Shown: one piece after another, positions 23,438 through 50,227 of the stretch
How the letters are laid out: every line of letters starts with the position of its first letter
Position numbering within the stretch: the stretch's first letter is position 1
Assembly (NCBI GenBank): GCA_018781585.1
Contig: JADMJT010000006.1
Span: 11,116-75,115 of the forward strand
Direction of reading: 5' to 3'
DNA length: 64,000 bases
Source: Burkholderiales bacterium
GTDB taxonomy: Bacteria > Pseudomonadota > Gammaproteobacteria > Burkholderiales > Thiobacteraceae
The notes under the pieces: model-generated
What the model was told of the DNA's origin: nothing
Databases searched by the model: none
What the model saw: the letters and a program-made list of their open reading frames with translations, nothing else
Program-made: the position numbers and the translations under genes

Positions 23438-23457
23438 GGGGGTACTGCAGGGGGTAT
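23438..23457 (+). repeat. putative integrase arm-type site, left end
   Basis: GGGGGTACTGCAGGGGGTAT. It shares the GGGGGTA-5nt-GGGGGTAT layout with 51501-51520. An inverted copy ATACCCCC lies at 23327-23334. Confidence 0.55.
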
Positions 23458-23485
23458 TTCGTTAAATCGAACTCAGGAGAAAGTC

Positions 23486-24945: not shown

Positions 24946-25434
24946 CTAAGTACCCCACGCAGAAAATCGCTTGCGGCACTCTTCCTCGGGGAAGCGGCTT
25001 TCTTCATCCATCATCGCTCGCAGGGCTTCGGTCGCCTTCTTTTTTGAGATGGCCTTGGATTCAACAAGTCGATCGAGCAACCAAAGTGATCCATGAACTA
25101 CTACGAATCGCTTGGCCGCAAGCTTGCGCAGCCTGCCATCGCCTGTCAACAACGTGCACTGCAGCTTGTCGGCCAGAAAAAAACAGGAAACATCTGCGAG
25201 TGAGCTGTAGTTGAGCGTTTGCATTAAGACACCGAGCCGGTTGATTTCTTCGCCGCTGAGGTCGTGAATCTTGAGCCCCAAGGAAATCAGACGCAGGGCT
25301 TCTGGGGCAATCAGTTCTGCCTTGACGAAATCGGTCGTGCAAAATTCGTACGGCAGACTGAACAAGACATCCAACAATCCGGCGCGATGGAAATCAACCC
25401 AGATGTTGGTGTCGGAAACCAGAATGCGAGGCAT
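24946..25434 (-). CDS. PIN-domain-like protein (putative toxin/nuclease)
   Basis: 162 aa. N-terminal ILVSDTNIWVDF acidic motif and TGDGRLRK near the C-terminal half. The start overlaps the upstream gene stop (TGATG). Confidence 0.6.
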   Translation of the reverse strand: MPRILVSDTNIWVDFHRAGLLDVLFSLPYEFCTTDFVKAELIAPEALRLISLGLKIHDLSGEEINRLGVLMQTLNYSSLADVSCFFLADKLQCTLLTGDGRLRKLAAKRFVVVHGSLWLLDRLVESKAISKKKATEALRAMMDEESRFPEEECRKRFSAWGT

Positions 25435-26768: not shown

Positions 26769-27635
26769 TCAGCCCCCGGCGGCATGTATAGGCACGATGC
26801 CTCTGCACGCCGGGTACTTTGAGCAGCCCCAAAAACTGCGGCCCATATTCTCACCTTGCTTGGCCGTGCGCCTTACCATCGAAGCACCACACTTCGGGCA
26901 TGCCGGCGCTGAGTCAGCACCCCTGCTAACCGAATCAGATATGACAGGTTCGGCTGCTGCATGAGAAGTGGATCGCACCGAGTCGATAACCCGCCGCAGC
27001 TTTTCTCCATCGATGAGCGCGATATTTTTACCACCTGCAAATTCTTTCGCCTCCTGCGTAAACACACCAGACGTAACAACCACGCCACCCTGCGCTTTCT
27101 GTGCAGCCATCACACCATAAAGCTCACGCACTGTTTTCACGCCAACCTTGAACGTCTTCCACTGCTTGCATTGCACAAGCACTGTTTGCCCGTTCTTCGT
27201 CAGCACTAAATCAACGCCGCCATCCGCGCCACCGCCGCCGATCTCGCGCACGTTGAAACCCTGCCGGCGATAGGCTTCGCCGACCAGCATCTCGAACTCC
27301 TGCCAGGACATGCCATTCAACGCGTCAGCATCCGCACGCTCGCCCGTTTTCTCAAGCAGATTTTCGCGCTTACGCCGACCCAATGCAGAAGCTAATGCGC
27401 CAACCATGAATGCCACAGGCAACAGATACTGCCCAATCATCGCCAGAGTCTTGTAAATCTGTTTAGCCGCGACGCCACCTGCGCCAGCCAGTTGAGTTGG
27501 CGTACTTAACTCCATGACAGCGAAAGGATGGATAACTAAATACGCCACGACTGCAATCACAATTCCAAGCCACCAAGGCAACATTGCAGCCAGGCTAACA
27601 AGATCATCAAATAAACCACCCTTGCGGCGACCCAT
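26769..27635 (-). CDS. membrane-anchored Mrr-like restriction endonuclease-fold protein with a C-terminal topoisomerase-type zinc ribbon
   Basis: 288 aa. Two to three N-terminal hydrophobic helices. Mrr_cat core GGADGGVDLVLTKNGQTVLVQCKQWK. Zinc ribbon CPKCGASMV...FWGCSKYPACRG. Confidence 0.8.
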   Translation of the reverse strand: MGRRKGGLFDDLVSLAAMLPWWLGIVIAVVAYLVIHPFAVMELSTPTQLAGAGGVAAKQIYKTLAMIGQYLLPVAFMVGALASALGRRKRENLLEKTGERADADALNGMSWQEFEMLVGEAYRRQGFNVREIGGGGADGGVDLVLTKNGQTVLVQCKQWKTFKVGVKTVRELYGVMAAQKAQGGVVVTSGVFTQEAKEFAGGKNIALIDGEKLRRVIDSVRSTSHAAAEPVISDSVSRGADSAPACPKCGASMVRRTAKQGENMGRSFWGCSKYPACRGIVPIHAAGG

Positions 27636-29788: not shown

Positions 29789-31627
29789 TTATGTTGGAAT
29801 GAAGCCCCTACGACCATGGCTTGCGCCGGTAAATCTGATGACATTGATTGCCCCATCAAGATCATGAGGAGGGTCTTCATTTTCAAAGATAATTACTTGT
29901 GCACTTGAAAATTCATCGGCTATCGAACGATAGAAAGCGTCTTTTACGTCTCTGCTGAATTCACCCTCATCAGTATCTGGCTCTCTGTACACGACCAAAG
30001 GTGAGTCAATAACAACAAGACCAGGATGGGGCAAGGACTCATCTAAGCAAAGCCGCATCAACGCGAGATTGAATGCTGCATGAGCAATAGCACGCACACC
30101 CTTTCCGTGACTGGTTCTGCCGCGACCAGAAATAATTATGTCTTGGTCATCTTCACTGAATGTAACGCGGCCTAGGTCAGGAAAATGCCACTCCTTCAAT
30201 AGGTACTCAACTTCCTGACAAAAATCTTCCGCCTCATCAGCACCGACTCTAGTTGACTCCCCCCCCGAGTTTTTCTCTTGCTTCAGGTTTCTCACTTCAT
30301 GTAACAGCACTGTTAACTCTTCCGCACGAGTGTGAATGTCGAGGGCGGCACGGTATGTATCCCGTTCAGATTCGCTGTTTTTAAGCTTTTGCAGGGCACC
30401 ATTCATTCTTGGCCTAATGCGATCGTTAAGCTCTTCTGTGATTGCCTTCAGTTCAAGCTGCGATTCCTTGCCGACAGTTGTAATTCGATCAATTTCAGCA
30501 TCGTTCGATTGCCGGGTTGACTGCAAATCCGCAAGTAATACTCTAATCTTGTTCGCCTCGGCAAGGCATGCAGTTGCTACGTTATCAGGCGCGGCGTTGG
30601 GCAAACGGTGTGTGTGTTCATGGTGCTCAGCAACAGAGCCGCAGACTGGGCAACGCTCTTCCTTCATCTGAGCCAGCCGAGTACCTGCCTCTGCAATGGT
30701 CTCAAGTCGTCGTAGATCAGAAGCGTACTGTTGTTGCAAAAGTTGGAATCTTTGCTGTAGCTCGGTTAACACATCTTTTCGTGATTCCAGTTGGCGAAGA
30801 TGTGTCCAAACTGTTCGGCGTTTATCCTCAAGCGGAGCGACGGCCTTTTGCTCGGCAGCAAGTTCCTCTGATGCATCGGCGTGCAACGCCTCAGCCTGAG
30901 TAAACTGCTGCCTCCACTCGGTCACATTCCCAGCTAGATTTAGCTCGCTCAATTTCTGTTTTGTGCGATCCAATAGTATCTCTAGCACTTCTGTTTTACC
31001 TTGTTGCTTTCCTCTGGCTATCTTGATGTCTTCTTTTGAAATAACGCTCGCATCATCGCTTCCCGCCAATAGAAGACGAAAAACAGAGCTTTCAACAGGA
31101 CGGGTCGAGTACCCGCCGCGCAGAGAGTAGATTGGCGACAACTCACGAATTATGGTTTCTTCATTCACAAGAATTAGTCGAGCAAGATCACGAAAACTAA
31201 ATGGGCGTGTTGTCCCGCGCCGGTTAGTACGAACTGTCTTACCAGCCAAGCAGGATAAGTTCAAAAGTAAATTAGAAATAGTATCGGTGGCACCATCTCG
31301 ATGCTTTCTGCCAAGAATTTTTTTCACTCCGTTCTGGTCATAGAAATTAAAGTCTCCGCCCTTAATGCTTCGCTCTAATATAATTTCTGCTTCATCGTTC
31401 TCCTGGCAAAGAGCGATCTGAACCAAATCGTAGGGCGCAGCTTCGGGTACAGGTTTGGGTGATTTACTCGCGCCAAACATGAAGTCGATACACTGAAAGA
31501 TGAAGGTCTTACCTGTATCCGATGGGCCAGATACGACATTTAGGCCAGTTCTAAAACGAACCTCAGCATTGGGGACGCCCGTACCCATGAGTGTAATGCG
31601 CGAAATATAAAATCTAGTCACTGCCAT
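29789..31627 (-). CDS. lmuB: SMC/Rad50-like ABC ATPase with coiled coil and CxxC hook (Lamassu LmuB / ABC-3C ATPase)
   Basis: The start is taken at the ATG at 31627 (MAVTRFYISRI), which overlaps the upstream stop by 10 nt. Walker A GPSDTGKT. A long heptad-rich middle contains EERCPVCGS. The C-terminal region carries VVIDSPL (Walker B-like). Confidence 0.75.
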   Translation of the reverse strand: MAVTRFYISRITLMGTGVPNAEVRFRTGLNVVSGPSDTGKTFIFQCIDFMFGASKSPKPVPEAAPYDLVQIALCQENDEAEIILERSIKGGDFNFYDQNGVKKILGRKHRDGATDTISNLLLNLSCLAGKTVRTNRRGTTRPFSFRDLARLILVNEETIIRELSPIYSLRGGYSTRPVESSVFRLLLAGSDDASVISKEDIKIARGKQQGKTEVLEILLDRTKQKLSELNLAGNVTEWRQQFTQAEALHADASEELAAEQKAVAPLEDKRRTVWTHLRQLESRKDVLTELQQRFQLLQQQYASDLRRLETIAEAGTRLAQMKEERCPVCGSVAEHHEHTHRLPNAAPDNVATACLAEANKIRVLLADLQSTRQSNDAEIDRITTVGKESQLELKAITEELNDRIRPRMNGALQKLKNSESERDTYRAALDIHTRAEELTVLLHEVRNLKQEKNSGGESTRVGADEAEDFCQEVEYLLKEWHFPDLGRVTFSEDDQDIIISGRGRTSHGKGVRAIAHAAFNLALMRLCLDESLPHPGLVVIDSPLVVYREPDTDEGEFSRDVKDAFYRSIADEFSSAQVIIFENEDPPHDLDGAINVIRFTGASHGRRGFIPT

Positions 31628-32142
31628 GAGACCTCCTGGGCATTCAACACTGACTCCATCTCGAACTCGGCCCCCCACTCGCCAACATGCTTTTCAGCGA
31701 GCTGCGTAATTTCGTTGTCAGACAAGCCCCCAAATTCCGTAACTAACCATGCTGCCCTTTCGCGAAGGTGTGCCAAATACTCCGAGCTTAATACATCAAG
31801 GAAACCAGCCGAACGGTCTGTCGCGGAAAAAAGGACACCGTGTTCCGTGTAATGGCGGTCAATAAGGCCCCGGCTGAGGAATAGCAGCAATCCATCTTCC
31901 AGCATGCTGCGGCGTACCAGCAATTCGCCACTACGATGCGGCGTCTGCGGATGAAGACCAATCGGCCCGCCAGGAATGTCGTCCGAGTGCACGAGCAAAT
32001 AGTCAAAGACAACAAGTCGTTGCAACGAGAGTGCCGAGGGATATGAATCGTTCAAAATGGCCAAAGCACGAAGTCCAATCTCAACGGGGCCGTTGAAGGG
32101 CGAGGGGAGGCGTGGCTGGTGTTGAGTAATCACTTTACCCAC
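31618..32142 (-). CDS. lmuC: small middle component of the three-gene ABC system (LmuC-like)
   Basis: 174 aa with a GTG start overlapping the upstream stop by 13 nt. I recognise no enzymatic motif. The call rests on its position between the effector and the SMC-like ATPase. Confidence 0.55.
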   Translation of the reverse strand: MGKVITQHQPRLPSPFNGPVEIGLRALAILNDSYPSALSLQRLVVFDYLLVHSDDIPGGPIGLHPQTPHRSGELLVRRSMLEDGLLLFLSRGLIDRHYTEHGVLFSATDRSAGFLDVLSSEYLAHLRERAAWLVTEFGGLSDNEITQLAEKHVGEWGAEFEMESVLNAQEVSWQ

Positions 32143-33236
32143 CTAACTTTCTTGTCGTTTGCAAGCTGATGGCAGATACCGCCGCGATCCCGCACCGACA
32201 ATCTAGCATTTAGCGCGTGGCCTGTTAGCTGTAAAAGCCGTGCCGTCTTTACAACAGCCATAACCCGCCGGTATCCATCTTCGTGATGGGTGCGGAAATC
32301 ATCTTTAATCCCGCCGTGAACATCTTCTTGAAGCTTCTCGAATTCACCTGGTGGCAATGTGTCACGTGAAAATGCTCGCAGTGCCTCTGCACTATAGAAC
32401 TCAAGCCGAGAGTCACTGAAGTGTTCACATACGTCAGTCTCGCTTGCGATGTCACCGATGCGATCCACATTCCGCTTTAGGTGATCGGCGTATGCGTCTA
32501 ATAGCTGCCGCACATAATTCGCCTCGTGGTCTGCTGGATCATCTGGTGGCGTGTCCACTGGCGGCCTTAGTGGCAGCCCCCCTCCAAATCGTGCGACATG
32601 CCAACGTGTCTTTGCATGTTCATCAATGATCCGAAGTGGTGGAATAGCACTGAAGATCGAAAAATCTAGCCCATTGATGTATGCCGTGAGCGTGTCGTCA
32701 AGCTCAATGGTTGCAGTTGAAGTAATGCCCGCTCGGCAGTGCGCATCCCAATTGGCTATGAGCTGAGCACGCAGCTCGCTCGGTTTCTTTAGCATATTGG
32801 CCAGTTTTGTTCCTGCACCTTGTGGTGCCACGAAGAAATAGTGCCGGGGGTAGCTGTAGTCCCCGCGCCGAGTGTAGTAGACGAGCTTACCAAGTTCCAC
32901 CCAAATGTCCCCCGGACGCAGTGGGTCTTGATAGTGTTTGCACTGATAGTTGTCCCACTTGCTGTTGTCGAGCTTGCACGTCGCAATAACGTCCCGCCCC
33001 ATGTCCCCAGCACCCCCGCAACGCTCTACAAGGCTGTACTCATTACGGAGCGAGTCGGCCCACTCAAGAACAAATTCCTCCCACTGCCGGTCGCTAAAAA
33101 TCTTAATGCGCTCAATGGCAGGAATGGGAAGCCCTAGAGCAACAAAATCGGGTGGGACAGCAGCGGGTGCTGCGGGCGTTGGTAATGGCTTCGTTTGTGG
33201 GAACGCTGTCATATGGCTACTCCAAAAATAGTCCAT
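32130..33236 (-). CDS. lmuA: effector: Mrr/PD-(D/E)xK-like restriction-endonuclease fold N-terminus plus an ABC-3C-type C-terminal domain (LmuA-like)
   Basis: 368 aa. The nuclease-like core is GGAGDMGRDVIATC...WDNYQCKHY (D...QxK). The C-terminal region ends GGICHQLANDKKVRWVK. Confidence 0.6.
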   Translation of the reverse strand: MDYFWSSHMTAFPQTKPLPTPAAPAAVPPDFVALGLPIPAIERIKIFSDRQWEEFVLEWADSLRNEYSLVERCGGAGDMGRDVIATCKLDNSKWDNYQCKHYQDPLRPGDIWVELGKLVYYTRRGDYSYPRHYFFVAPQGAGTKLANMLKKPSELRAQLIANWDAHCRAGITSTATIELDDTLTAYINGLDFSIFSAIPPLRIIDEHAKTRWHVARFGGGLPLRPPVDTPPDDPADHEANYVRQLLDAYADHLKRNVDRIGDIASETDVCEHFSDSRLEFYSAEALRAFSRDTLPPGEFEKLQEDVHGGIKDDFRTHHEDGYRRVMAVVKTARLLQLTGHALNARLSVRDRGGICHQLANDKKVRWVK

Positions 33237-36039: not shown

Positions 36040-39000
36040 TTAAATTTCCTCCACCGCTGACTGGGTGGCCACTGAATCGATCATTTTATTGAACTCGGCT
36101 TCGACCTTCTTTGCGAAGTCGTGCTGCATTTGGTACACCTCGGTAAATTCCGCAAAGGCCCAGCGACCGTAGTTGCCCAGGTTGTTCACGCCGGGCACCC
36201 AGTAGATGTCCATGGTGTTTTTCTTTTCCTTGGCGTCTTCGCGGCGATAGCCCTTAATTTCGACAATGAGATGCAGCAAGTCGTCTTCGCCGTGGCCGTC
36301 ATCAACCAGCACGATGAAGTCTGGGATGTACTTGCGCGTTTCGGAGCCATAACGATATGGAACTTCCAGCCCGAGGTTGTGGTTTTTGACATAGGCTTTG
36401 ACGCGCGGGTGCGACTCTGCGACGCGGCAGAATTCACCCTCCCAGTCGCTGTCGAGGATCACCCAGTTGAGGTGGCAACGGCGGGCATCGGTCTCCCAGC
36501 GGTCCATCTTCGAGGTGTTGAAGTTGACATGCGCAGTGCTGCCCACTGGGTTGTAGGGGTCGAGCACGGCTTTGATCGGACGTTTGCCTAGATCAGATCG
36601 CGTGATGCCTGCCACGATGCGCTCGCAGGCCATATCGGCCAGCATTTTGTATTTGAGTTGCGCCGGATAGGTGCCGCCCTTGCACACCAGATAGCCTTCG
36701 ATCCACTGGCGAGCGATGCGCTTGAGTTGGCCGAACAGGTTGAGTTGAGGATCGCCGTTAGCGTCACGGAATTTTGTCAGTAGCAGATGTGAGGTGAGTT
36801 CGTAGATGACTTGTGATGGACGAACATCGCCGGTGTGTACCAGATTCAAATCCACTGTTTCGCCGATGATCCCGGAATTGCGCGTTTCGGTTGCGCCCAC
36901 CAGATCGGGGGTGAGTTCGAGCACGGAGTCGTCGTTGAATTCAGCGGAGAGACGATCTTCTGGCAACTCGGTGCGATAGCCTTGCACGCGCGGGAATGTA
37001 ATCTCGCAGTCATCACGATCGGGACGGATAGCTTTGACCTGGATGGTCTCGCGCGGTTTTTGCGGCGGCGCGACTACAGGTTTGGCGGTGAAATCGAAGG
37101 GGATGCCCAGCACGTCGGCGTATTCGACGTTGAACAGACCTTCCTCGTTGAGCTCGTAGGACTGGCGGCGCAAGGCGCGGCCAATTACCTGTTCGCACAG
37201 CAACTGGGTGCCGAAGGCGCGCACGCCCAGCACATGGGTGACGGTATTAGCATCCCAACCTTCGGTGAGCATGGATACAGACACGACGCAGCGGATGGAA
37301 TCGCCGAGGCGACCGGACTTGCCGACGGTGTTCATCACCTCGCGCAACAGTGAAGCGTCGTCCAGTTCCTTGCCTGCCCGCAGTTCATCGGCGAGTTTGC
37401 CGCCGCGTTCAAAAATCTCTTTGCGAAATTGAGTTATCTCGTCCGATGCCATATTGCGGAAATTGTCATCCAGGGCATCACCGGATTCGAGTTGCTCGCT
37501 ATCTATCAGCAGAGTGCGCGGACGGCCCAGCGGGTTGCCGTGTTCGTCGTGGTTGCGAAACAGGGCAAAACGTCCTTCCACCAGTTTGCTGGAGCCATCA
37601 TCATGTTGTTGCTGAAAACCGGAGATGTAGTCATAAACCAGCTTGGATGCGGATGTGTTGTTGCATACGACGATGAAGCAAGGCGGCACAGAGATTTTTT
37701 CTTTGGCCCAAAGCTCGAAGGTCTTTTCATAATGACCATATAGTGCTTCGAGTGCGGTCTGCAATTGGGTTGGCAGGTCGAGTGGGTTAAGCGTGTCGCC
37801 TTTGCCGCGCCCTTTCTTTGGCATCTTGGCGCGGATGTGTTCCCACAAATTGCGGAACATGGGCATTTCATTGCCGGGGATGTTATCTGCCACTGGCACG
37901 CGCGGTAGCTTGACGATGCCACATTCGATGGCATCCATCAGCGAGAAGTCGCTCATAGTCCAGGGGAACAAAGTGCCTTCAACATAGCCGGAGCCGCTCA
38001 GAAAGAATGGCGTGGCGGAGAGATCAATGACGCGGGGTACACCCAACTTGCGATTGACGGCTTCGAGGCCGGAAATCCATAAGCGTGCCGCCTCATTGTT
38101 TTCTTCGGCTTCCTTTTTCTCGTCGCCTTTCAGGTCTTCGTCATCGGTTTCTGCCTTCGGCTTTTCGCGGTAGCAGTGATGCGCTTCGTCATTGATGACC
38201 AGGACGTTTTTCATGCCCATCAATTCTGGCATGACACGCTGGAGCATTTGACCTTCGGTTTCGAGGGTGTCGAGTGGATCGCCGCCACGCCCTTGCAGCA
38301 GCAATCGCCCGCCTTTGGATAACTCCATGCGTTCGCGCAGTTTGAATGCGTGGTAGTTGGTGATGACGATTTTGGCGCGCTCCAGATCGCCCATCATGTC
38401 GCTGGGCACCAGTTCACGGCTTTGGTAGTAACTGTCCGGATCATTCGGTTGCAGCACGCGCAGGCGATCCTTGATGGTGAGTCCAGGTGCGACGACCAAA
38501 AAGCCGCGCGTGAATTTTTTGCTGGTGGGGCGGCGCACGGCGTTGATGGTCTGCCAAGCAATCAGCATGGCCATGACGGTGGTCTTGCCCGCACCGGTGG
38601 CCAGTTTCAGCGCCAGCCGCATCAGTTCGGGATTGGCATCGTTGTTGGCATTGGTCAGATAATCCAGAAACCGTTCCGCTGATTTGCCCAACTGGGGTGC
38701 GACTTCAGTCAGCCAGATAAGCGTTTCAACCGCCTCGACCTGACAGAAAAATGGACGAACGCCGCTGAAATTGTGATGCCGCCAATGTTGTAACAGCCGC
38801 GCAGTTTCTGGCGAGACGTGCCAAGTGTTGGGATTGGGTAAAGCACGCCATTTACCTACTTCCTGGCGAACCGCGTTGATGATGGCCGCCGTTTTTTGGT
38901 ATTCCTGCGCTTGGGTAGAGAGCCCCTTGTCATCGTCCAGCAACAACGATGTTTGTTCGGCTTGGCCTTTCCGTTTCTTAGGCTTAGGAAGTGGAGTTAT

Positions 39001-39126
39001 GTATTCTGCAGGACGGCGTTTATCAATTATCTGTTGTGTCGGCTGCCCATGGTCGAGTTCCCAATGACGAGATGGATGCTCGTAGGGGGAGTTGAGGATT
39101 GGTTTCTCGAAAAATTGGTTTTCCAT
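36040..39126 (-). CDS. res: type III-like restriction enzyme Res subunit (SF2 helicase + C-terminal PD-(D/E)xK)
   Basis: The track ORF starts at a TTG (39159); I prefer the ATG at 39126 (MENQFFEKPILNSPYEHP). Motif I LATGAGKTTVMA, motif II VINDEAHH. The nuclease motif is YIPDFIVLVDD...LIVEIKGY. Confidence 0.85.
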   Translation of the reverse strand: MENQFFEKPILNSPYEHPSRHWELDHGQPTQQIIDKRRPAEYITPLPKPKKRKGQAEQTSLLLDDDKGLSTQAQEYQKTAAIINAVRQEVGKWRALPNPNTWHVSPETARLLQHWRHHNFSGVRPFFCQVEAVETLIWLTEVAPQLGKSAERFLDYLTNANNDANPELMRLALKLATGAGKTTVMAMLIAWQTINAVRRPTSKKFTRGFLVVAPGLTIKDRLRVLQPNDPDSYYQSRELVPSDMMGDLERAKIVITNYHAFKLRERMELSKGGRLLLQGRGGDPLDTLETEGQMLQRVMPELMGMKNVLVINDEAHHCYREKPKAETDDEDLKGDEKKEAEENNEAARLWISGLEAVNRKLGVPRVIDLSATPFFLSGSGYVEGTLFPWTMSDFSLMDAIECGIVKLPRVPVADNIPGNEMPMFRNLWEHIRAKMPKKGRGKGDTLNPLDLPTQLQTALEALYGHYEKTFELWAKEKISVPPCFIVVCNNTSASKLVYDYISGFQQQHDDGSSKLVEGRFALFRNHDEHGNPLGRPRTLLIDSEQLESGDALDDNFRNMASDEITQFRKEIFERGGKLADELRAGKELDDASLLREVMNTVGKSGRLGDSIRCVVSVSMLTEGWDANTVTHVLGVRAFGTQLLCEQVIGRALRRQSYELNEEGLFNVEYADVLGIPFDFTAKPVVAPPQKPRETIQVKAIRPDRDDCEITFPRVQGYRTELPEDRLSAEFNDDSVLELTPDLVGATETRNSGIIGETVDLNLVHTGDVRPSQVIYELTSHLLLTKFRDANGDPQLNLFGQLKRIARQWIEGYLVCKGGTYPAQLKYKMLADMACERIVAGITRSDLGKRPIKAVLDPYNPVGSTAHVNFNTSKMDRWETDARRCHLNWVILDSDWEGEFCRVAESHPRVKAYVKNHNLGLEVPYRYGSETRKYIPDFIVLVDDGHGEDDLLHLIVEIKGYRREDAKEKKNTMDIYWVPGVNNLGNYGRWAFAEFTEVYQMQHDFAKKVEAEFNKMIDSVATQSAVEEI

Positions 39127-39323
39127 ATTATGTTTTCTGAGGATCAATCCAATATTCAAATAGAGGCATGATGCCGTGCTCCGAGCTCACAGAGTGAGCT
39201 ACTCCCCGTAATTCGCCTGAGTTTTACCAAGCGCATTTACCACAATTTCACGCAATGCCTACGGTTCTAATACTTCTACTTCTAGCCCATGCTTCATGGA
39301 TATCGTTTTCTAAAAAACCCTTT

Positions 39324-39551
39324 TTATTCCTTGCCTGCTGGGCCAGGCGATCCTTCCACTATTTCCAATAGATCCCCTACTTCGCATTCGAATAAGCGGC
39401 ATATTTTTTCGATAGCGATCAGGTCTATGCGCTCTGCTTTCTCGTGGTAGAGCAAGGCAATCGTGTTTCGATTCAAGTCAGTAGCCTTCGCCACGTCGGC
39501 AATTTTCATCTTGTGCTCGCCCATTAGGCGGGACAGGTGGCACTTAATCAT
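39324..39551 (-). CDS. XRE/Cro-type HTH transcriptional regulator (possible controller protein of the downstream array)
   Basis: 75 aa. HTH KIADVAKATDLNRNTIALLYHEK. Same strand as res and upstream of it. Divergent from the AAA+ gene. Confidence 0.8.
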   Translation of the reverse strand: MIKCHLSRLMGEHKMKIADVAKATDLNRNTIALLYHEKAERIDLIAIEKICRLFECEVGDLLEIVEGSPGPAGKE

Positions 39552-39689
39552 TTAGACACTCCAAAATACGAAACGCTACTTTGAATAGCGTAACAACCGT
39601 CAAGAACGCAAAAAGACTTTACAAATGCCATTTAACCGGCTAGAGTGCCATTCAGAATGACAAACCGCCTGTCTAGGAAGGAAGCTGTT

Positions 39690-40847
39690 ATGTCGGATGG
39701 TAGTGCAAAAGTGTGGCCGGGAGAAGACTTCAAGATGGATTCTTTGGAATCGGAGGAGACGCCGGAGTGCAAAGACACTGTAAAAGATGATCAGGAGACA
39801 ACTGCGGATAGCTCTCCGGAGCCAGGTGCAGAACCAGAAGCAGCTACGCCGTCCTGCCCTGCCAATCATATATATGTGCTCGACCCTATCGCCGTGCGCC
39901 GGATGACCAACCCGGTAACGGCCCGGCAACGTGGCGAGACACAGACCCGGCTGCGTGATTTGCTGCTTCAACACCAACATCTCGCCAGCCCGTATCCATT
40001 GCGCCCCTACCCGGCTGATATGGCGCAACGTTGGAAGAAGCTGCGCTCGAAGTTTCCAAATTTCAGCGAAGTGCTCGATCTCTTGGAGAAGCGCTACGCA
40101 CTCGCGCTGCTACGCCGGGACACGCCAGTTTCGTTTCCACCATTGCTTCTGCTCGGAGACCCCGGGGTCGGAAAGACGGCATTCAGCAAAGCACTGAGTA
40201 AGGAAATCGGCTTGTTTTATGGCGAAATTCAGATGTCTGGTCTCACAGAGGCATTTACGATTTCTGGGCTTGATGTCGGCTGGAGCAGCGGCAATCCGGG
40301 CCGCGTGTTTGAATATGTATCGGCCGCCAGGCATGCGAATCCTCTATTGCTGCTCGATGAATTCGACAAGTGTAGTCAAGGCGGCAGTGGTGGCGATCCG
40401 CACGCGCCCTTTCACGTCTTGCTCGAGCGTCATTCGGCGCAGCATTTCGAAGATATGGCAATTCGCCTGCCCGCAGATATGCGTTGGATCAATTGGGTTG
40501 CTACGGCCAATGAACCGCTCGCCATCCCAGCCTCATTGCTTTCCCGCTTCCGGCGAATTGTCGTGCCCAAACCTAGCCGCACGCAGATGACTGCCGTGAT
40601 TAATTCAGTCTACGAGGAGAAGCGCGATTCAGTGACGAACGGCGACTTGTTCGCACGGAAGCTCGACCAGTCAATCGTTGAACTACTTCTGGATCTCACG
40701 CCACGTGCGGTTGGTCTTGTCATCGAGGAGGCCATGGGCGCTTGTGCCAAGCGTTCACGACGCGGGCGATTGCTGCGTATCACGCCTGGCGATGTTTTTT
40801 TGCCGAAAAGCCACGAACAGCGGCGCATCGGTTTTTTCCCCAACTGA
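39690..40847 (+). CDS. Lon-like AAA+ ATPase without a protease domain; acidic, low-complexity N-terminus
   Basis: The track ORF starts at 39645; the ATG at 39690 follows GGAAGGAAG. Walker A LLLLGDPGVGKTAFSKAL, Walker B NPLLLLDEFDK, sensor/Arg region IPASLLSRFRRIVV. This layout parallels the Lon AAA+ module. Confidence 0.75.
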   Translation: MSDGSAKVWPGEDFKMDSLESEETPECKDTVKDDQETTADSSPEPGAEPEAATPSCPANHIYVLDPIAVRRMTNPVTARQRGETQTRLRDLLLQHQHLASPYPLRPYPADMAQRWKKLRSKFPNFSEVLDLLEKRYALALLRRDTPVSFPPLLLLGDPGVGKTAFSKALSKEIGLFYGEIQMSGLTEAFTISGLDVGWSSGNPGRVFEYVSAARHANPLLLLDEFDKCSQGGSGGDPHAPFHVLLERHSAQHFEDMAIRLPADMRWINWVATANEPLAIPASLLSRFRRIVVPKPSRTQMTAVINSVYEEKRDSVTNGDLFARKLDQSIVELLLDLTPRAVGLVIEEAMGACAKRSRRGRLLRITPGDVFLPKSHEQRRIGFFPN

Positions 40848-40881
40848 TCACCAGCTAGCAATCCGCCACAGGAGAATTGAC

Positions 40882-41394
40882 ATGACACCCACTGCAACCA
40901 AGAAACACGAAGCGCGAGACCTTCCACCCCACGACCTGCCCACAGCTCTCGCCGCCCCAGTTGCGCTGATTGCCGACCTCGGCTGGGCTGCTGGGTTCAT
41001 CGACGGAGAGGGCTGCATTTCCGCGGTATGGCAGCGATACAAAGACCCAACTCGACGCACCTGCATTCGTATCAAGTTACAGGTGGCCCAGAACGATTAC
41101 AGCAGCCTTCGGCGGTTGCAAAATATTTTGGGCGTCCAAAGCGAAATCGTGCAGTTGAAGCGGACACAGGCACAAAACCGTCCGGTGTATTCCCTCAACT
41201 TTGATACTCGGCATGCGATCGGCGCACTGCTCAAAGTGGCGCCATTCCTGCATCGCAAGAAGATGGAAGCCGAAACCTGCTTCCAGCTCTGGGTGGAAGG
41301 CATGATGGGCGTGCGCTTCGGGCCCAAGCCTATCCCCGAGGAAATCTGGGCGATCCGGGAGAAATACTTGCTGAAGCTGCAGCGCCTGAAGTAA
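40882..41394 (+). CDS. free-standing single-motif LAGLIDADG homing-endonuclease-fold protein
   Basis: Track ORF 40678..41394 trimmed to the ATG at 40882, which follows GGAGA. The LAGLIDADG motif is LGWAAGFIDGEGCISAV. The second-half motif LLKVAPFLHRKKMEAE resembles the I-CreI-type core. Confidence 0.75.
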   Translation: MTPTATKKHEARDLPPHDLPTALAAPVALIADLGWAAGFIDGEGCISAVWQRYKDPTRRTCIRIKLQVAQNDYSSLRRLQNILGVQSEIVQLKRTQAQNRPVYSLNFDTRHAIGALLKVAPFLHRKKMEAETCFQLWVEGMMGVRFGPKPIPEEIWAIREKYLLKLQRLK

Positions 41395-41488
41395 GAAAAG
41401 AAGCGGATCGTACTCACAGACTGCAGCCGAAACATAAAGGCTTTTCTAAACCTGCGGGGCCACGGCACCACCCCTGTAATTCATTTAA

Positions 41489-41800
41489 GGTTTTGCTATT
41501 CCCCACATAAAAAGCGCGGACCAAGCAAAAGACCGCTACGGCCGCACCGTCCGCCGCGTGATTTGCGTCGGGGCAGATGCCAACGCCGAGCAGCTGTGCC
41601 GCGGCATGGCTGAGGTATACAGCAAATACGTGCGCGACCAATCGCTCTATGAGATCGATGCCGAAGCCCGAGCAGCCCAGCGCGGTCTATGGTCAGACGC
41701 CAACCCGACGCCCCCTTGGAGTGGCGGCATAAATAGACCCAATCGCGCCAACGTACTGGGAGCAAGTTCAGAGGGCGTTCCTGCCCCTGGATCGGGTTGA
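41489..41800 (+). pseudogene. 5-prime-truncated thermonuclease (staphylococcal nuclease-like) remnant
   Basis: The frame is open only from 41489. It reads ...KDRYGRTVRRVICVGADANAEQLCRGMAEVYSKY...YEIDAEARAAQRGLWSDANPTPPW, which is the C-terminal third of SNase-family proteins. No N-terminal OB-fold half and no plausible start are present. Confidence 0.65.
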
Positions 41801-41837
41801 CGAATAATTCGGACCAGCATTCGAGGAGCAGCGCAAG

Positions 41838-42857
41838 TTATTCTGGCATTGTCTCGGACGTGAAAGGAATATCCATATAGAGGCTGCCGTCGTTGCGATG
41901 TGAGACGATCAGCCCTCCTTCGACGACAAGTTCATCTGCAAGGTCGCCAAGTGCCTCGAACGAGCTTTGGTCGCTCCAATGTCCGTAATCGTCGGCAATG
42001 CGCTTGCAGAGCACGCCCAAACGCTCGAAATATGACGCGAACCAGTGACCTTTGAGAGCAGCCTTCGTTTTTGGCAAGTCCATCAATGACAGCCTTTGCC
42101 CCGCCATGTTGCCGAGATGATATGCGGCAAACTTCATGAGTGAGCCGTAGGCAGCATATATCTCGGCCATAATCTTAGTGACATCTCCGTGCCGACGATA
42201 CGCCTTTATGAGCGCGTTGGCCTTCGAGCGCGTCTCGTTCAACAGAAGAATGAAAGTCTCCTCGTAGCCGGCAGTGGGGTCATGTCCGAAGGGTGCGCTG
42301 ATCCAGGTTGCTGCGTATTCGTCCCAGCACGCCAAGTTGATCTGCCACCTTGCAGCGTCATGGATATTCTTGTAAACGTTCTGCAAGAGAACGTTTGGAA
42401 ATGCCGTGTCGAAGCGATGCGTTATCTCGACATGTGCACATTCATGCGCAAGCGTGTGTAGTGCCAACTTGAAATGCTCAGAGTTGGGATCTTCAAGCGC
42501 GATGGCTAAAGCCGCGTTCAACACAATGTGACTCTTCACGATTCCATCGCGAATGACGGAAGGTGTCATCGCGACGCCGATAGCAAATTCATCGGACGGT
42601 GTTAGTCGATGTGAGTAGAGGTATCCCCGATCAAGGTCTAGCAGCGCCTGATTGTAGTCAAATGCAATCGTGACCCCGTCGAGACGGCTTAGGTCGATTT
42701 GGCGGCTCAACTCTTGGATATATACGCCGGCAAGGTGCGCGAATTGCGTTGCCCGCTCTTCCATATCGAATCCCCGTACGGTGACGGGAAGGTTTTTTGG
42801 CGCAGTATACGGGCGATCTTCCGGCTCCCTTGTCCCACTTTGGATATCCTTTTCCAT
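41838..42857 (-). CDS. hypothetical protein with an HExxH motif (possible zincin-like metallopeptidase)
   Basis: The track ORF starts at 42878; the ATG at 42857 follows AAGGAG. The only motif I recognise is LHTLAHECAHVEITH. Confidence 0.6.
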   Translation of the reverse strand: MEKDIQSGTREPEDRPYTAPKNLPVTVRGFDMEERATQFAHLAGVYIQELSRQIDLSRLDGVTIAFDYNQALLDLDRGYLYSHRLTPSDEFAIGVAMTPSVIRDGIVKSHIVLNAALAIALEDPNSEHFKLALHTLAHECAHVEITHRFDTAFPNVLLQNVYKNIHDAARWQINLACWDEYAATWISAPFGHDPTAGYEETFILLLNETRSKANALIKAYRRHGDVTKIMAEIYAAYGSLMKFAAYHLGNMAGQRLSLMDLPKTKAALKGHWFASYFERLGVLCKRIADDYGHWSDQSSFEALGDLADELVVEGGLIVSHRNDGSLYMDIPFTSETMPE

Positions 42858-42944
42858 GGCTCCTTTCCTGCGGATCAAATGCCCCGACTTTTGGTCGGAG
42901 AGTTGATCGCGGCTAGCCGATACCCTTATGGCTAACGAAGGCCG

Positions 42945-45440
42945 CTAAAGGTACAACGACGGCTCTTCATTCCACTCCGATATCAAGCTGCGTGCTAGAG
43001 TTTGACCGGATAAAAGCTCTCTTAACTGTGCCACCTTGCCTTCCATCTGTCGGGCTTCACCGGATAGGGCTGTCAGGATCGCGACATCGGCCTTCAGTTC
43101 ATTCGCCGTCGCGGCAAGATCCTCGATGTCGCTCTTTGCGATCTGGTCTACCCTTGGCTTTGCCTCACCAATGAAAAATTTTCCGTCCACGATGCAAACC
43201 ACGTCCAGTTCGCGGTCGGCTTTCATGCCCTGGTTCTCGGGGTAGTCGCGAAAGAGCGCCGTTTGGGGTGCAAAAATGAACGATTTTTTTGCTTCTCGCC
43301 GCAGTGCACTCAGTGCCCATATGACGCTGAGCGTATCGTGCTCGCGAAGACACGTTGCCAGAAACTCGTTGAGACGGAAGTCGAGAGTGAGATCAACAGG
43401 GAGGTGATGCTCTTGCTGGCAAATCTCGCATGGCATCACGTTCTTCAGAGCATCGACGGAAACCCAGTTTCGATGGGAGCAGTGGCGGCAGACCCACTCG
43501 TGACCGCGATAGAACACACCGCGTTCACACAAGTATCCAAGGGAGCTCTTGATGCCTTCAGGTGCATCCGCGAGGATCGCGTCGCTCTGGTCTTTTATAT
43601 GGGTATTTACCTCTATTGCTGCCGTCAGCTCCTTTTTCCACGCTTCCAGAAGACGGGTGTATTGCGTGGTTAGCCTGGGAACTCTGAGATCGCTCGACAT
43701 CTGTATTACGCGCTCGGCCAAGTTTTGCCAGCCGGCCCCATCCTCGATCACTAGCGTCCCGCTCTTTGCCTTGAGGCGCCGCTGCAGTTTCGTGATCACC
43801 ACCGGGTATTGCTCGGTCGCCGGCGTAGCCATCGTTTCAAATTGCGTTCGCCAGAAGTGCCCACCGAGCACGGCTTCGGCGTCGCTCAGCGAGCCAAACA
43901 TACCCAGGACACCCTGCAGGTAGCGCCCCTTGTCAGATGGTTTTGAAAACTTGTACGCGACATTTGTCGCGAGTACCTTTCGCATGTCGCGGTATGCATA
44001 CTGTGCGGCGTCGTTTAGCAGGCTATAGAACACCTCTTGGTCTTCTGGCTGTGACACCTCTAAGGCTTGGATGTCTTTGTGCACCTCAATGCCAATGTCG
44101 CCGGTTCGCAATATCCTTGTGGGTCGTTTTTTGTGGAATACACGCAGTAGCTGCGGACGTTTTGGCAGCGTCCACACGTCCCGAACATTGTCAAACCGGC
44201 TGTTATCGTTCAAGCGATCGATTTGGAGATCAACGTACCAACTTCCTCTGGACATGATCGGATGCGCGCCGGTGCAGTACTTGACCTGTATCGGGCTCGG
44301 GACTGACACGGCTACAGGGCTCTCACCGATGGCGACTTCTGAAGAAGCGTTGTCTGTAGGGCGCACAAAGTGGATGCTCTTGTCCCCTGCCGGGCAGCAG
44401 TCTTCCGCCGTATCAATCCGCGCAACATTGACGATTGACATCGACGGCCCGCGGAGTTGCTCGGCAAACGCCTCGAGTTCTTCTTTATTCAACGAGTGCG
44501 AGCGCACCGAAACCCTTGACGAGCTATTGTTCTGGCCTAGCCAGTTGCAGTTCCGGAGGAACTCTGCAATACACTTGGTGTTATCAGGCTCCAACCTAGT
44601 CGCAGCCGGAACACGGAGGGTCTTGTACGTTTGGTGCTGCGCGTCGTCGTAGAGCAGCGCGGAATTCCAGCACGTAACTCTATCCAGAAAGCTGTCGCCC
44701 ACGACTAGGCAGAAGCTGTCTCGCCACGGATGCTCCACGCGATGCCGCTGCGCGTAGAGGTTCGACAGATAACCGAGCGTGAGGAGGCTGTTATTATGGT
44801 GCAACCGCGGCAGAATTTCATACGCGCTGTTGATTTCCTCGTGTCCTGCGTTACCGAAGTGCCATCGGTTCGCCGGCGGGTCTGGAGGGGTCAACATCAA
44901 TGGCCGAACATAGTCGGCCAATTCGCGATGAACCGGGAACTGTTCTAGACTTGAGGAGAGTGAGCCGAAGTTATCTGTCACGAAACCGTCGTCGCGCCAT
45001 AGTGGATAGGAATCCAGAATCAGTTCTGGACGTGCCCGAATAGCACCCGAGCTGATCTTCAAAAACGGCAGCCATGATAGGGCCGTCAGCGCGGGCTCTT
45101 CGAGGCCGACGCTGGGGTGCTCCTCGAGTGTGTCGCGCTTTCTCTCGCGACCCAAGATTACCGTGTCTGCTAAAAGGTCAGCAAGCGGTTGAACGAGGGC
45201 GGCGTTGTCATACGTCAATGCGAAGACGACATCAGGGTCGAGCACGCGCAGCCAATTAGCATAGCGCTGGGGAATCAAGGCGTTTTCAACCGGCACGACC
45301 AGTGATTGACGGCCACCGTGTCTGCCAAGGCACGACGCAAAGATACTGTTAAGCCAGCGGGGTGCATCGAGACCGTCCTCAATGAGGTAGGCGACACGAA
45401 CAGGACGCGAGATGGCGTGGATTTTCGGACTAGGTTTCAC
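42945..45440 (-). CDS. large hypothetical protein (831 aa) with a C-terminal CxxC...CxxC zinc ribbon and a PD-(D/E)xK-like nuclease motif
   Basis: GTG start with GGAG 8 nt upstream. I found no P-loop. Residues about 651-681 read CRHCSHRNWVSVDALKNVMPCEICQ. Residues about 744-761 read ELDVVCIVDGKFFIGEAK (D...ExK). Confidence 0.7.
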   Translation of the reverse strand: MKPSPKIHAISRPVRVAYLIEDGLDAPRWLNSIFASCLGRHGGRQSLVVPVENALIPQRYANWLRVLDPDVVFALTYDNAALVQPLADLLADTVILGRERKRDTLEEHPSVGLEEPALTALSWLPFLKISSGAIRARPELILDSYPLWRDDGFVTDNFGSLSSSLEQFPVHRELADYVRPLMLTPPDPPANRWHFGNAGHEEINSAYEILPRLHHNNSLLTLGYLSNLYAQRHRVEHPWRDSFCLVVGDSFLDRVTCWNSALLYDDAQHQTYKTLRVPAATRLEPDNTKCIAEFLRNCNWLGQNNSSSRVSVRSHSLNKEELEAFAEQLRGPSMSIVNVARIDTAEDCCPAGDKSIHFVRPTDNASSEVAIGESPVAVSVPSPIQVKYCTGAHPIMSRGSWYVDLQIDRLNDNSRFDNVRDVWTLPKRPQLLRVFHKKRPTRILRTGDIGIEVHKDIQALEVSQPEDQEVFYSLLNDAAQYAYRDMRKVLATNVAYKFSKPSDKGRYLQGVLGMFGSLSDAEAVLGGHFWRTQFETMATPATEQYPVVITKLQRRLKAKSGTLVIEDGAGWQNLAERVIQMSSDLRVPRLTTQYTRLLEAWKKELTAAIEVNTHIKDQSDAILADAPEGIKSSLGYLCERGVFYRGHEWVCRHCSHRNWVSVDALKNVMPCEICQQEHHLPVDLTLDFRLNEFLATCLREHDTLSVIWALSALRREAKKSFIFAPQTALFRDYPENQGMKADRELDVVCIVDGKFFIGEAKPRVDQIAKSDIEDLAATANELKADVAILTALSGEARQMEGKVAQLRELLSGQTLARSLISEWNEEPSLYL

Positions 45441-49189: not shown

Positions 49190-50227
49190 CTAGCGGCGCT
49201 TGGGCGCATTGCTGCCTGGTCCACTATAGACACGGCGCCGCGGTCTAACGGCGCGGGTTGCTTTCACTCCTAGCACACGGTTGCCGCCCCGCCGGGCCTG
49301 CCGCTGATGTCCGTAAAAGCGTTGCGTCTCTTCAACTGAATGCCCTAAAGCTTGAGCAACCTGATCCGAATCCAAGTCATCCGCCTTTAAGTCAGCCGAA
49401 AATTGATGACGGTAAACATAGGGAGTTACGTGGGCTTTACGACGCGGCCAGAGTTTTTTCGAAATACCAACAACCGAATCTTTCAACAGCGCAGCTTTAA
49501 CCGTGACAATCAGCGGCGAGCCTTGGACTGCCAACTGCCGCTCAAGATGTGCCGCTTCGGGGGAGTCTATCCTAATGAGAATAGACCGCTCTTTCTGACC
49601 GAATTTGCCGTCATGTGTCTTCGCTCCAATTACTTTGAACAAAATACCTTCATTCAACCCCTCAACTTTGATGCCGGCTTCCAACTCAGCAGGGCGACAA
49701 CCAGTACAAGACAAAATCGCGATAGCGTCACGATACTTCCCACGTTTAGGAACCGCCTCCCACATTCGAGCGCGCCAATCACTTGGTAGTTGGGCGAGAA
49801 CTCGCCGCTTGGAAAGGCTTTGCGTGACGATGGCTTGCGCCTTGGCATGCGCGACCCAAGCACCGATCTGACCAGAATGTATCCGCTGGCGCTTAGGGTC
49901 GGGGGCGTACTGGTTGAGCCTTATGCGCAATTCCTGAAGCCTTTTGACGGATCGAATCGTACTCTGATGCTCGCCCATCCCGTAGGCAAAAATGGATATG
50001 CTACGGAGCAACCGCATCTCATGCAAAATGCCATATATCCACGCGGCCCGATAAAAATAAAAACTATTTTTCCGGGCCGCACCCATTTTCAAGGGTGTTG
50101 CGCTGTCTTTTGTCATGCGCTTGCAGGCCTGCAGATACTGGCGGCATGTCGTTTCACTTGGCTTGGGAAAGTGATCCAGAAATCTTTCGACCGATTGGAT
50201 GAACCGGGAAAACTGTACATGATCCAT
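49190..50227 (-). CDS. second tyrosine recombinase / phage-integrase-family protein
   Basis: 345 aa. Catalytic-region motifs LSCTGCRPAEL, TPYVYRHQF and ALGHSVEETQRFYGH. Confidence 0.7.
   Translation of the reverse strand: MDHVQFSRFIQSVERFLDHFPKPSETTCRQYLQACKRMTKDSATPLKMGAARKNSFYFYRAAWIYGILHEMRLLRSISIFAYGMGEHQSTIRSVKRLQELRIRLNQYAPDPKRQRIHSGQIGAWVAHAKAQAIVTQSLSKRRVLAQLPSDWRARMWEAVPKRGKYRDAIAILSCTGCRPAELEAGIKVEGLNEGILFKVIGAKTHDGKFGQKERSILIRIDSPEAAHLERQLAVQGSPLIVTVKAALLKDSVVGISKKLWPRRKAHVTPYVYRHQFSADLKADDLDSDQVAQALGHSVEETQRFYGHQRQARRGGNRVLGVKATRAVRPRRRVYSGPGSNAPKRR

Follow-up and report, generated by a model that had tools for sequence, protein, structure and literature searches.

A repressor, a Lon-like ATPase, and a free-standing LAGLIDADG nuclease as a candidate conflict or defense cassette in a Burkholderiales genome

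LAGLIDADG enzymes are the textbook example of selfish nucleases, and meganuclease genome editing is built on them. Why would one of them be encoded immediately downstream of a Lon-like AAA+ ATPase in a bacterial genome? The question is raised by positions 39690-41394 of a 64,000-nucleotide (nt) stretch, hereafter the window, of contig JADMJT010000006.1, which belongs to a Burkholderiales metagenome-assembled genome (MAG). Gene calls were taken from the list of open reading frames (ORFs) and from NCBI records. A preliminary description, made from the sequence letters, had proposed the two genes as a candidate ATPase-nuclease defense system. Part of that proposal stands, in that the genes are a linked, conserved pair found in defense islands, but the unit comprises three genes, the third being a repressor gene. 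Our best reading is that repressor, Lon-like ATPase, and LAGLIDADG nuclease form one inherited, co-regulated cassette carried on defense islands and integrase-bearing elements. As a whole, we read it with moderate confidence as a module that would act in conflict or defense, an ATPase-nuclease pair under the control of a repressor.

Linkage of the nuclease and the ATPase across lineages

The ORF at 39645..40847, read from the ATG at 39690, encodes a 385-amino-acid (aa) protein identical to MBT9611904.1 ("AAA family ATPase"), and the reading frame from the ATG at 40882 to 41394 encodes a 170-aa protein that is MBT9611905.1, named "LAGLIDADG family homing endonuclease" by NCBI; both records come from a Burkholderiales MAG. 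Each gene has its own ribosome-binding site, AGGAAGGAAG at 39675-39684 for the ATPase and AGGAGA at 40870-40875 for the nuclease. The latter lies inside the 34-nt spacer, on whose + strand there is no terminator-like site. Together with the divergent repressor gene, the whole three-gene cassette measures ~2.1 kb (Table 1). This layout bears out the preliminary description, which had reported the two ORFs 34 nt apart, the second with its own ribosome-binding site, as an operon divergent from an XRE regulator, a gene that we find to match HTH_26 (helix-turn-helix [HTH] family) at 3.3e-20.

The preliminary description had also asked whether a Lon-like AAA+ gene is a conserved neighbor of the LAGLIDADG homologs, and the answer is that it is. 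Protein searches returned 20 LAGLIDADG relatives and 57 AAA+ relatives, and all 252 collected loci (given below by working labels such as L001) were scanned with both family profiles, a match of at least 117 bits defining a close nuclease member. A family AAA+ gene lies within 2 kb in 18 of the 26 loci with a close nuclease member; the eight exceptions are six copies of a single nuclease lineage, P0013, and two contigs that end too early. An adjacent family AAA+ gene occurs at none of the ~220 loci with generic LAGLIDADG genes, among them 80 IMG/VR contigs and numerous candidate phyla radiation and Actinomycetota genomes; one of these loci, L058, has a weak match to the AAA profile ~3.8 kb off. 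Because of this difference between the close and the generic loci, the pairing of this nuclease family with the AAA+ gene is far beyond chance.

Close nuclease homologs stand beside a Lon-type AAA+ gene in 14 lineages (the window, L001, L002/3, L082-85, L086/87, L088, L260, L255, L010/L093, L026/L096, L094, L097, L012, and L013), and they do so in five gene orders. Within the window's own clade, where AAA+ identity is 51-73%, an HTH gene diverges from AAA+ followed by nuclease on every contig with a readable flank (L001, L002/3, L082-85, L086/87, L088, and L260). All 7 of the readable lineages of this clade carry the nuclease, which is a small sample, and distant stand-alone AAA+ genes exist. 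The outer flanks within the clade are unrelated and comprise type II secretion genes, a two-component system, Qat/Ths/HNH genes, Ppl/DUF4365, Mrr, and giant ORFs. In the second order, nuclease precedes AAA+ and the divergent regulator is either HTH_26 (L094 and L097) or Arc (L255). An Aca2-like HTH gene, the nuclease, and the AAA+ gene all run in one direction in L010 and L093, on a Methylophaga element with a GPA-type replication protein, whereas in L026 and L096 the AAA+ gene diverges from HTH followed by nuclease, next to an integrase; L026 is a minimal island of integrase, trio, and one extra ORF. In the fifth order, found in L012 and L013 (Rubrivivax and Methylibium), a gene for a protein that we call X stands between the nuclease and AAA+ genes. 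The spacer between the AAA+ and nuclease genes is 22-35 nt at homologous loci, and the genes nearly abut in L094.

The two proteins also appear to have been inherited together. Nuclease and ATPase identities covary over pairs of loci (Pearson 0.88, Spearman 0.45), and the same partners (L086/L088, L010/L093, L012/L013, and L001/L082) are mutual closest relatives for both proteins. A profile search of the nuclease family returned 186 clusters at E<=1e-30, some of which carry an N-terminal extension of 300-580 aa. In P0125 and P0150, this extension is homologous to protein X of L012 (8677-9408) and L013 (1263-2138), with tblastn values of 1e-26 to 1e-47, so that in some genomes the nuclease is fused at its N terminus to the product of a neighboring gene. 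Such a fusion, as predicted from homology, is a classic sign of functional linkage. Domain X contains the motifs DHHxxPGG and LFDLGK and has no PDB or Pfam match, only sub-threshold hints of HDIG (E 0.015) and MobH (E 0.47); it is also listed for P0154, P0164, P0176, P0179, P0197, and P0205. No AAA+-LAGLIDADG fusion protein occurs among the best 150 family representatives.

Judged locus by locus, placement beside known defense genes recurs in unrelated genomes. In addition to the window, copies adjoin QatABCD (QatAB), ThsB, and HNH_5 in L082/83, Ppl and DUF4365 in L084/85, and Mrr in L260. Between L082 and L084 the cassette is the same and only the cargo next to it differs. It is from this context that we infer a defense function for the cassette.

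The ATPase, the nuclease, and their control region

The ATPase resembles Lon without its protease. Pfam AAA matches it at 6.6e-13, as a generic domain only, and the NCBIfam model "lon" covers only model positions 352-495 of 795 with a score of 71.6 against a cut-off of 608. A profile built from 28 family members is far more telling, since it retrieves the ATPase modules of LonA/LONP1 at ~3e-42 in PDB alignments that start in the helices before the Lon ATPase and end short of the protease domain. An AlphaFold model (predicted local distance difference test score [pLDDT] of 86) likewise returns only Lon chains in Foldseek. Walker A (G156-K162), Walker B (D223, E224), sensor-1 N274, the arginine finger R286, and sensor-2 R339 are invariant in the family, as is W198, a pore-loop aromatic aligned to the pore-loop-1 tyrosine of Lon. 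Given these invariant catalytic residues, W198, and structural matches to Lon alone, the protein is predicted to be a Lon-type unfoldase module that has all of its catalytic parts but no protease.

Thus, the cassette ATPase has in common with LonA the AAA+ module and its preceding helices, the Walker motifs, the sensors, the arginine finger, and the pore-loop aromatic, but it lacks both the Ser-Lys protease domain (it stops ~45 residues past sensor 2) and a LAN-type N-terminal domain (no Pfam match). In their place are an acidic, disordered N terminus and a short C-terminal tail that carries an invariant GF (..RIGFFPN), the final ten residues being disordered. The preliminary description had recognized the Lon-like layout of the Walker and arginine regions and the missing protease, and both points agree with what we find. 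It had also taken the N-terminal 100 aa to be acidic and of low complexity, which is true of the first ~50 residues (16 D/E versus 4 K/R; pLDDT <50 over residues 1-41) but not of residues ~55-140, which are conserved and confidently folded as a helical region preceding the AAA+ module.

The nuclease is a LAGLIDADG protein with a single motif, AAGFIDGEGC, as had been claimed: PF00961 matches at 1.5e-7, and the family profile retrieves I-CreI-derived, I-MsoI, and I-CvuI chains at 5e-16 to 1e-12. An AlphaFold2 model (pLDDT 90) has the canonical alpha-beta-beta-alpha-beta-beta-alpha core, and its top Foldseek matches are I-CvuI, I-MsoI, and I-CreI (template modeling score up to 0.74). G38, D41, G42, E43, G44, C45, and K126 are invariant across the 20 relatives and Q70 is conserved in at least 90%; HMMER aligns E43, Q70, and K126 with D20, Q47, and K98 of I-CreI. 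The protein runs from a disordered, variable N-terminal tail (residues ~1-17) through the LAGLIDADG helix (27-43) to a conserved C-terminal helix ending in KLQRLK. Because it has a single motif, it presumably acts as a homodimer. Several putative DNA-contact positions, mapped by eye onto I-CreI, are conserved across lineages.

With I-CreI, I-MsoI, and I-CvuI, the nuclease therefore shares the single motif, the fold, and the active-site acid, Gln, and Lys. Unlike them, it lies outside any intron or intein, is linked to a Lon-type ATPase, adjoins a repressor wherever the flank can be read, has the family-specific KLQRLK helix and the variable N-terminal tail, and shows no sporadic presence or absence among the few readable lineages of its own clade. 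An intron or intein origin, already rejected in the preliminary description, is ruled out by the Rfam scan, in which no model, group I and II introns included, matched at E<=1 in 38900-42000, and by the ORF layout, in which the gene has its own ribosome-binding site and start codon between two genes and no intein host (extein) ORF surrounds it. With synonymous sites near saturation, dN/dS is 0.05-0.21 in the nuclease gene and 0.09-0.13 in the ATPase gene, which indicates strong purifying selection on the nuclease rather than the decay of a homing gene. Homologs were absent from 72,556 plasmid records, and among phage records only Xylella phage Bacata (two records) has one, at 29% identity; the best matches on viral contigs reach 31-33% identity.

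The third gene encodes a Cro/C1-type repressor that is 85-92% identical in L001, L002, and L260 (dN/dS ~0.04-0.05). A homologous divergent regulator is also present in L094 and L097, and elsewhere an Aca2-like HTH or Arc repressor takes its place, so that a small regulator adjoins the nuclease and ATPase genes in every lineage with a readable upstream flank. A promoter scan of the control region found a sigma70-like promoter (TTTACA at 39618-39623, TAGAGT at 39641-39646), around which lie the palindromes AAATGCCATTT (39623-39633) and TGCCATTCAGAATGACA (39646-39662); a third palindrome, ACGCTA-N7-TAGCGT, occupies 39573-39591. The blocks TTTACAAATGnCATTTA and TGyCAyyCAGrATGrCA are kept in L001 and L002, as is the AAATGnCATTT palindrome at the promoter. 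The palindromes that overlap the promoter are probably operators of the divergent repressor.

We considered whether the HTH protein might serve only the adjacent type III restriction-modification (RM) genes and rejected this, because the HTH gene accompanies the AAA+/nuclease pair next to unrelated neighbors. Read-through into the window's res and mod genes is possible. Regulation of the RptR type (PMC12255303) was also rejected, as both protein and motif are unrelated.

The island and the cassette's edges

In the window, a tmRNA (ssrA) gene at 22957-23323 is overlapped at its 3' end by a P4-type integrase ORF (23288-24748), a second integrase-like gene occupies 49190-50227, and there is a drop in GC content at 50-52 kb. 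This combination suggests a genomic island of ~27 kb that is integrated at ssrA and carries all of the defense genes. Upstream of the cassette, the island encodes a series of restriction and defense proteins (Table 1), among which LmuA and LmuB make up a complete Lamassu pair; genes for a type III methyltransferase and a BPTD_3080-family restriction enzyme sit between Lamassu and the cassette. The type III RM, Lamassu, and Mrr genes near the cassette vindicate the defense-island setting given in the preliminary description. Past the cassette come the remnant of a staphylococcal nuclease (SNase) gene, two large ORFs, and a tetratricopeptide repeat (TPR) protein, followed by the second integrase-like gene.

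The SNase remnant, ~95 nt past the nuclease stop, is the right-hand boundary of the cassette. It had previously been described as a truncated nuclease remnant, and indeed it matches positions 63-107 only of the 107-position SNase profile, with a frame that opens near 41490; the missing 5' half of the gene was not found on the cassette's other side. Flanking repeats were rejected as cassette ends, since the sole pair is 11 nt long with one mismatch (39186, 41413), where we estimate ~0.2 pairs by chance, and is not conserved at other loci.

Two further observations concern the island and its edge. The adjacent ORFs at 41838-45440 (-) have products of 346 aa and 831 aa, neither of which has a match in Pfam, NCBIfam, or PADLOC. 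Inspection by eye shows an HExxH motif (LAHECAHVE) in the shorter product and, in the longer, a zinc ribbon of the form CxxC...CxxC together with a nuclease-like D...E-x-K motif (DVVCIVDGKFFIGEAK) at the C terminus; the pair may be another uncatalogued two-gene system. Just outside the island, the gene at 21771-22850 lies directly upstream of the tmRNA gene, and its product combines a Fic/DOC domain with a winged-helix domain at the C terminus.

Table 1. Features of the cassette and its surroundings (window coordinates unless another locus is named)
Feature	Position	Strand	Basis
RmrA-like HTH-M78 protein	25434-26480		family match
Type IV Mrr enzyme with Zn ribbon	26769-27635		family match
UvrD/NERD-like helicase	27672-29744		family match
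Lamassu LmuB	29789-31678		PADLOC 3e-165
Lamassu LmuA, with ABC-3C CTD6	32130-33236		PADLOC 9e-121
HTH_26 (Cro/C1, XRE-type) repressor gene, 75 aa, divergent from operon	39324..39551	-	Pfam HTH_26 3.3e-20; MBT9611903.1
Divergent control region	39552..39689	.	promoter scan and direct sequence reading
Protease-less LonA-type AAA+ ATPase, 385 aa	39690..40847	+	Pfam, NCBIfam, family profile, model
Spacer, 34 nt, carrying AGGAGA	40848..40881	+	direct reading
Free-standing single-motif LAGLIDADG endonuclease, 170 aa, I-CreI/I-MsoI/I-CvuI type	40882..41394	+	PF00961, profile, Foldseek
5'-truncated SNase remnant, outside cassette	41490..41800	+	Pfam SNase, frame analysis
GGCGAACGTCTCCTGTTCGGCC copy in L082	6441-6488		
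GGCGAACGTCTCCTGTTCGGCC copy in L084	3102-3149		
GGCGAACGTCTCCTGTTCGGCC copy in L084	7437	-	
GGCGAACGTCTCCTGTTCGGCC copy in L085	2523		
GGCGAACGTCTCCTGTTCGGCC copy in L001	5148-5200		
GGCGAACGTCTCCTGTTCGGCC copy in window, weak	45721	-	

Proposed mechanism, competing explanations, and precedents

If the cassette does act in conflict or defense, it would most likely be aimed at phage or other mobile elements, or it would be an abortive-infection module. The repressor would bind the palindromes overlapping the divergent promoter and hold the operon low. The LAGLIDADG protein, as an I-CreI-like homodimer, would be the effector that cleaves DNA, to judge from its fold and active-site residues, and a Lon-type hexamer would be the protein remodeler that gates it. 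We prefer a version in which the ATPase grips the variable, disordered N-terminal tail of the nuclease and unfolds the LAGLIDADG helix, which would be both dimer interface and active site; because the tail runs straight into this helix, pulling on it would dismantle the enzyme first. The outcome would be an ATP-dependent off switch, which would fail when infection depletes ATP or when a phage factor blocks the ATPase, thereby freeing the nuclease. The opposite polarity, in which the ATPase is an activator or a DNA loader, is also conceivable, and we hold any specific polarity at much less than the conflict or defense reading as a whole.

A number of observations weigh against this reading. The dependence runs one way, since the nuclease is missing beside Lon-like AAA+ relatives of 30-37% identity. 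Some of these stand-alone relatives are in housekeeping-like neighborhoods (L090-92), and others, of 473-524 aa, lie by HTH genes on plasmids (L258, Klebsiella IncA plasmid NZ_CP055012.1; L259, Acidovorax plasmid p1-T1). Two nuclease lineages, P0013 and P0010, have no AAA+ gene. The nuclease-linked AAA+ lineages are 25-32% identical to each other, no closer than they are to stand-alone relatives, and a single origin of the partnership is therefore unproven. LAGLIDADG recognition sites are usually 14-22 bp long, which ill suits a nuclease with broad anti-phage action, unless it targets a conserved sequence or the DNA of its own host. No catalogued defense system in PADLOC-DB 2.0 or NCBIfam 20 matches both genes, and full-text literature searches found neither a LAGLIDADG-based defense system nor a description of this pairing. 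A physical interaction between nuclease and ATPase, like the polarity of the gating, is pure inference. Finally, there are signs of recombination at the cassette. L082 and L084 are 99.9% identical through it, their identity ends 82 nt past the nuclease stop, and different cargo lies beyond; an insertion sequence (IS) interrupts L085 at the same point, and the truncated gene of the window is at the corresponding position. Over repressor and promoter, L001 resembles the window (82-87% nt identity); from midway in the AAA+ gene through the nuclease, it resembles L082 (76-82%). The boundary position and this mosaicism fit nuclease-stimulated recombination, which leaves a selfish, homing-like component on the table.

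The mosaic has its crossover near window positions 40136-40335, within the AAA+ gene. The HTH proteins of window and L001 are 92% identical and their nucleases 52%, and between L001 and L082 the HTH genes are nearly saturated (nonsynonymous divergence, pN, 0.5) and the nucleases 78% identical. The repressor and promoter module is thus exchanged independently of the effector genes.

Further observations on the AAA-less and stand-alone relatives belong beside these points. In the P0013 branch (L004-L009), HEPN_Swt1 and HTH_26 genes diverge from the nuclease gene, downstream of which a VirD4/HerA-like P-loop ATPase of 635 aa and a serine recombinase are encoded; the Lon-like ATPase may here have given way to another hexameric ATPase. 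The neighbors of P0010 are a HicB-like gene, a cytosine methylase, and a large FtsK-like protein. One stand-alone AAA+ relative, L089, lies in an island with Wadjet and BrxR genes. The plasmids of L258 and L259 are conjugative or mobilizable and have RM or toxin-antitoxin genes nearby and no LAGLIDADG gene, and the broader pair of HTH and Lon-like AAA+ genes may itself be an uncharacterized mobile-element module.

Could the nuclease be simply a selfish free-standing homing endonuclease? T4 seg and mob genes spread by intronless homing, and by analogy the cassette nuclease would home to a site in or beside Lon-like AAA+ genes on mobile elements, with the ATPase as target or hitchhiker; the nuclease would always be found next to the AAA+ gene because its recognition site lies there. 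The one-way dependence noted above, in which the nuclease nearly always has an AAA+ neighbor while the AAA+ family is often without a nuclease, favors such homing, as do the close structural kinship to true homing enzymes and the conservation of putative DNA contacts. The nuclease also sits at the edge of a rearrangement hotspot, where the L082/L084 break, the L085 IS, and the window's truncated gene fall, and the L001 mosaic resembles a co-conversion tract. However, the 7 readable lineages of the window's clade include no nuclease-less allele. The linkage holds over five gene orders, down to 25-30% AAA+ identity, and even with a third gene between, and the nuclease domain can be fused to protein X. 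A dedicated repressor adjoins wherever the upstream flank is readable, the operon is tight, and the nuclease is under purifying selection no weaker than that on the ATPase. Free-standing homing genes, moreover, flourish in phages and plasmids, which are almost devoid of this nuclease. The selfish explanation is weakened by these findings, and we regard it as unlikely.

The trio might instead do housekeeping for mobile elements, in replication initiation, excision, mobilization, or partition, with the nuclease cutting or nicking element DNA and the ATPase remodeling the nucleoprotein complex. Copies do lie beside integrases (window island, L012, L026, and L096) and, in L010, beside a GPA-type replication protein and KfrA; the AAA-less P0013 nuclease neighbors a VirD4/HerA-like ATPase and a serine recombinase, protein X gives sub-threshold hints of HDIG and a MobH relaxase, and conjugative or mobilizable plasmids carry Lon-like AAA+ relatives together with an HTH gene. 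Yet the same cassette is found on unrelated element backbones, and in L082/83 and L084/85 it stands between a chromosomal two-component system and variable defense cargo with no integrase or replication gene nearby. LAGLIDADG enzymes, furthermore, form no covalent DNA intermediates of the kind needed by relaxases or rolling-circle initiators, and no conserved candidate site flanking the cassette was found across lineages. We consider this explanation quite improbable. A three-part addiction module without an anti-invader role, in which the nuclease is a toxin restrained by the repressor, the ATPase, or both and thereby stabilizes itself and its island, seems to us very unlikely, even though sequence barely separates it from the conflict or defense reading; defense is also a function of many toxin-antitoxin modules. 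A small XRE, Arc, or HicB-like regulator beside a potentially toxic nuclease does resemble toxin-antitoxin loci, Lon-type ATPases are classical regulators of such systems, and the cassette occurs on islands of very different content. In most lineages, however, the regulator is divergent rather than co-transcribed with the supposed toxin, and it has been swapped independently of the nuclease, as the comparison of L001 with L082 shows.

At the right-hand edge of the cassette, 57-82 nt past the nuclease stop, lies a pseudo-palindrome of ~22 nt, GGCGAACGTCTCCTGTTCGGCC, at whose end the L082/L084 break and the L085 IS fall; in L084, the Ppl-DUF4365 cargo ends with a related copy in inverted orientation. 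The pseudo-palindrome could be an element like the repetitive extragenic palindromic (REP) sequences or a recombination site. We take its outer half-sites to resemble the I-CreI site in 23S rDNA, with different spacing. It was rejected as a target of the nuclease because it is confined to L001 and L082-85, apart from related copies in inverted orientation at other loci, and because it looks REP-like and is not generalizable.

A more specific and rather improbable form of the conflict or defense reading would make a domesticated homing-endonuclease fold the immune effector, restrained by a protease-less Lon look-alike that acts as decoy or guard. Here, the AAA+ ring would continuously unfold the nuclease dimer from its N-terminal tail, perhaps jointly with a host partner that docks on the invariant ..IGF tail at the C terminus of the ring, a motif that recalls the IGF loop by which ClpX docks ClpP. 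Phage-encoded inhibitors of the host's Lon, of the T4 PinA type, or loss of ATP during infection, would stall the ring, and the nuclease would then dimerize and cut DNA. I-CreI, I-MsoI, and I-CvuI cleave a 23S rDNA sequence, and the target might likewise be a conserved host site, such as that one, with abortive infection as the outcome.

The gating logic that we propose has precedents, to none of which the cassette is homologous. In several two-gene ATPase-nuclease systems, the ATPase restrains the nuclease until a trigger arrives, and in CBASS the AAA+ remodeler Trip13/Pch2 switches an immune pathway by unfolding its HORMA partner from a terminal tail. PARIS (AriA/AriB), Septu (PtuA/PtuB), and Gabija (GajA/GajB) are likewise operons of an NTPase and a nuclease effector in defense islands. 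They combine ABC/OLD-type ATPases with TOPRIM or HNH nucleases, however, whereas the cassette combines an AAA+ unfoldase type of the HCLR clade with LAGLIDADG, and PADLOC finds no sequence relationship to them beyond P-loop-level matches. To the TRIP13 model, the ATPase has a 24-residue P-loop match only, and no HORMA or cyclase genes are present. The best PADLOC matches of the ATPase are to IetA models of IetAS (AAA+ IetA with the protease IetS), but they are limited to residues 122-238 (17-28 bits), NCBIfam IteA scores 19.3 against a cut-off of 510, and no IetS-like protease is adjacent. BrxL of BREX is a Lon-related AAA+ defense factor that binds DNA (PMC10164562). It, too, is Lon-related and without proteolytic function in a defense context, and so is a precedent for Lon-like rings in immunity, but the cassette ATPase has neither BrxL_N nor the Lon-protease-like C-terminal domain, has no BrxL match in PADLOC or Pfam, and has no BREX genes nearby. 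Membership of the ATPase in BrxL, IetA, TRIP13, or DolB was rejected, as all matches are at the P-loop level. On the homing side, free-standing phage nuclease genes sit at boundaries of genetic exchange (PMC10055350). T4 Seg and Mob resemble the cassette nuclease in being free-standing, beside a conserved gene, and at a recombination boundary with mosaic flanks; they differ in being GIY-YIG or HNH enzymes that are phage-borne and sporadic, where the cassette nuclease is chromosomal or island-borne, present in every readable lineage of its clade, repressor-controlled, and sometimes fused.

In sum, the folds involved (LAGLIDADG, Lon AAA+, and XRE) are known and an island module of ATPase plus nuclease is a known kind of system, while this combination of components is undescribed. 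The nuclease matches only generic "HEase" models (2.5e-6) in PADLOC-DB 2.0 and NCBIfam 20, in line with the preliminary description, which knew of no named defense system with a LAGLIDADG effector. Because the mutants to make are obvious and the cassette is small, the hypothesis is directly testable. If it is true, the cassette would be the first documented recruitment of the LAGLIDADG fold into a conflict system, and, were the nuclease both ATP-gated and site-specific, it might find biotechnological use as a switchable meganuclease. Protease-less Lon-type unfoldases would then join the short list of AAA+ remodelers that control immune effectors.

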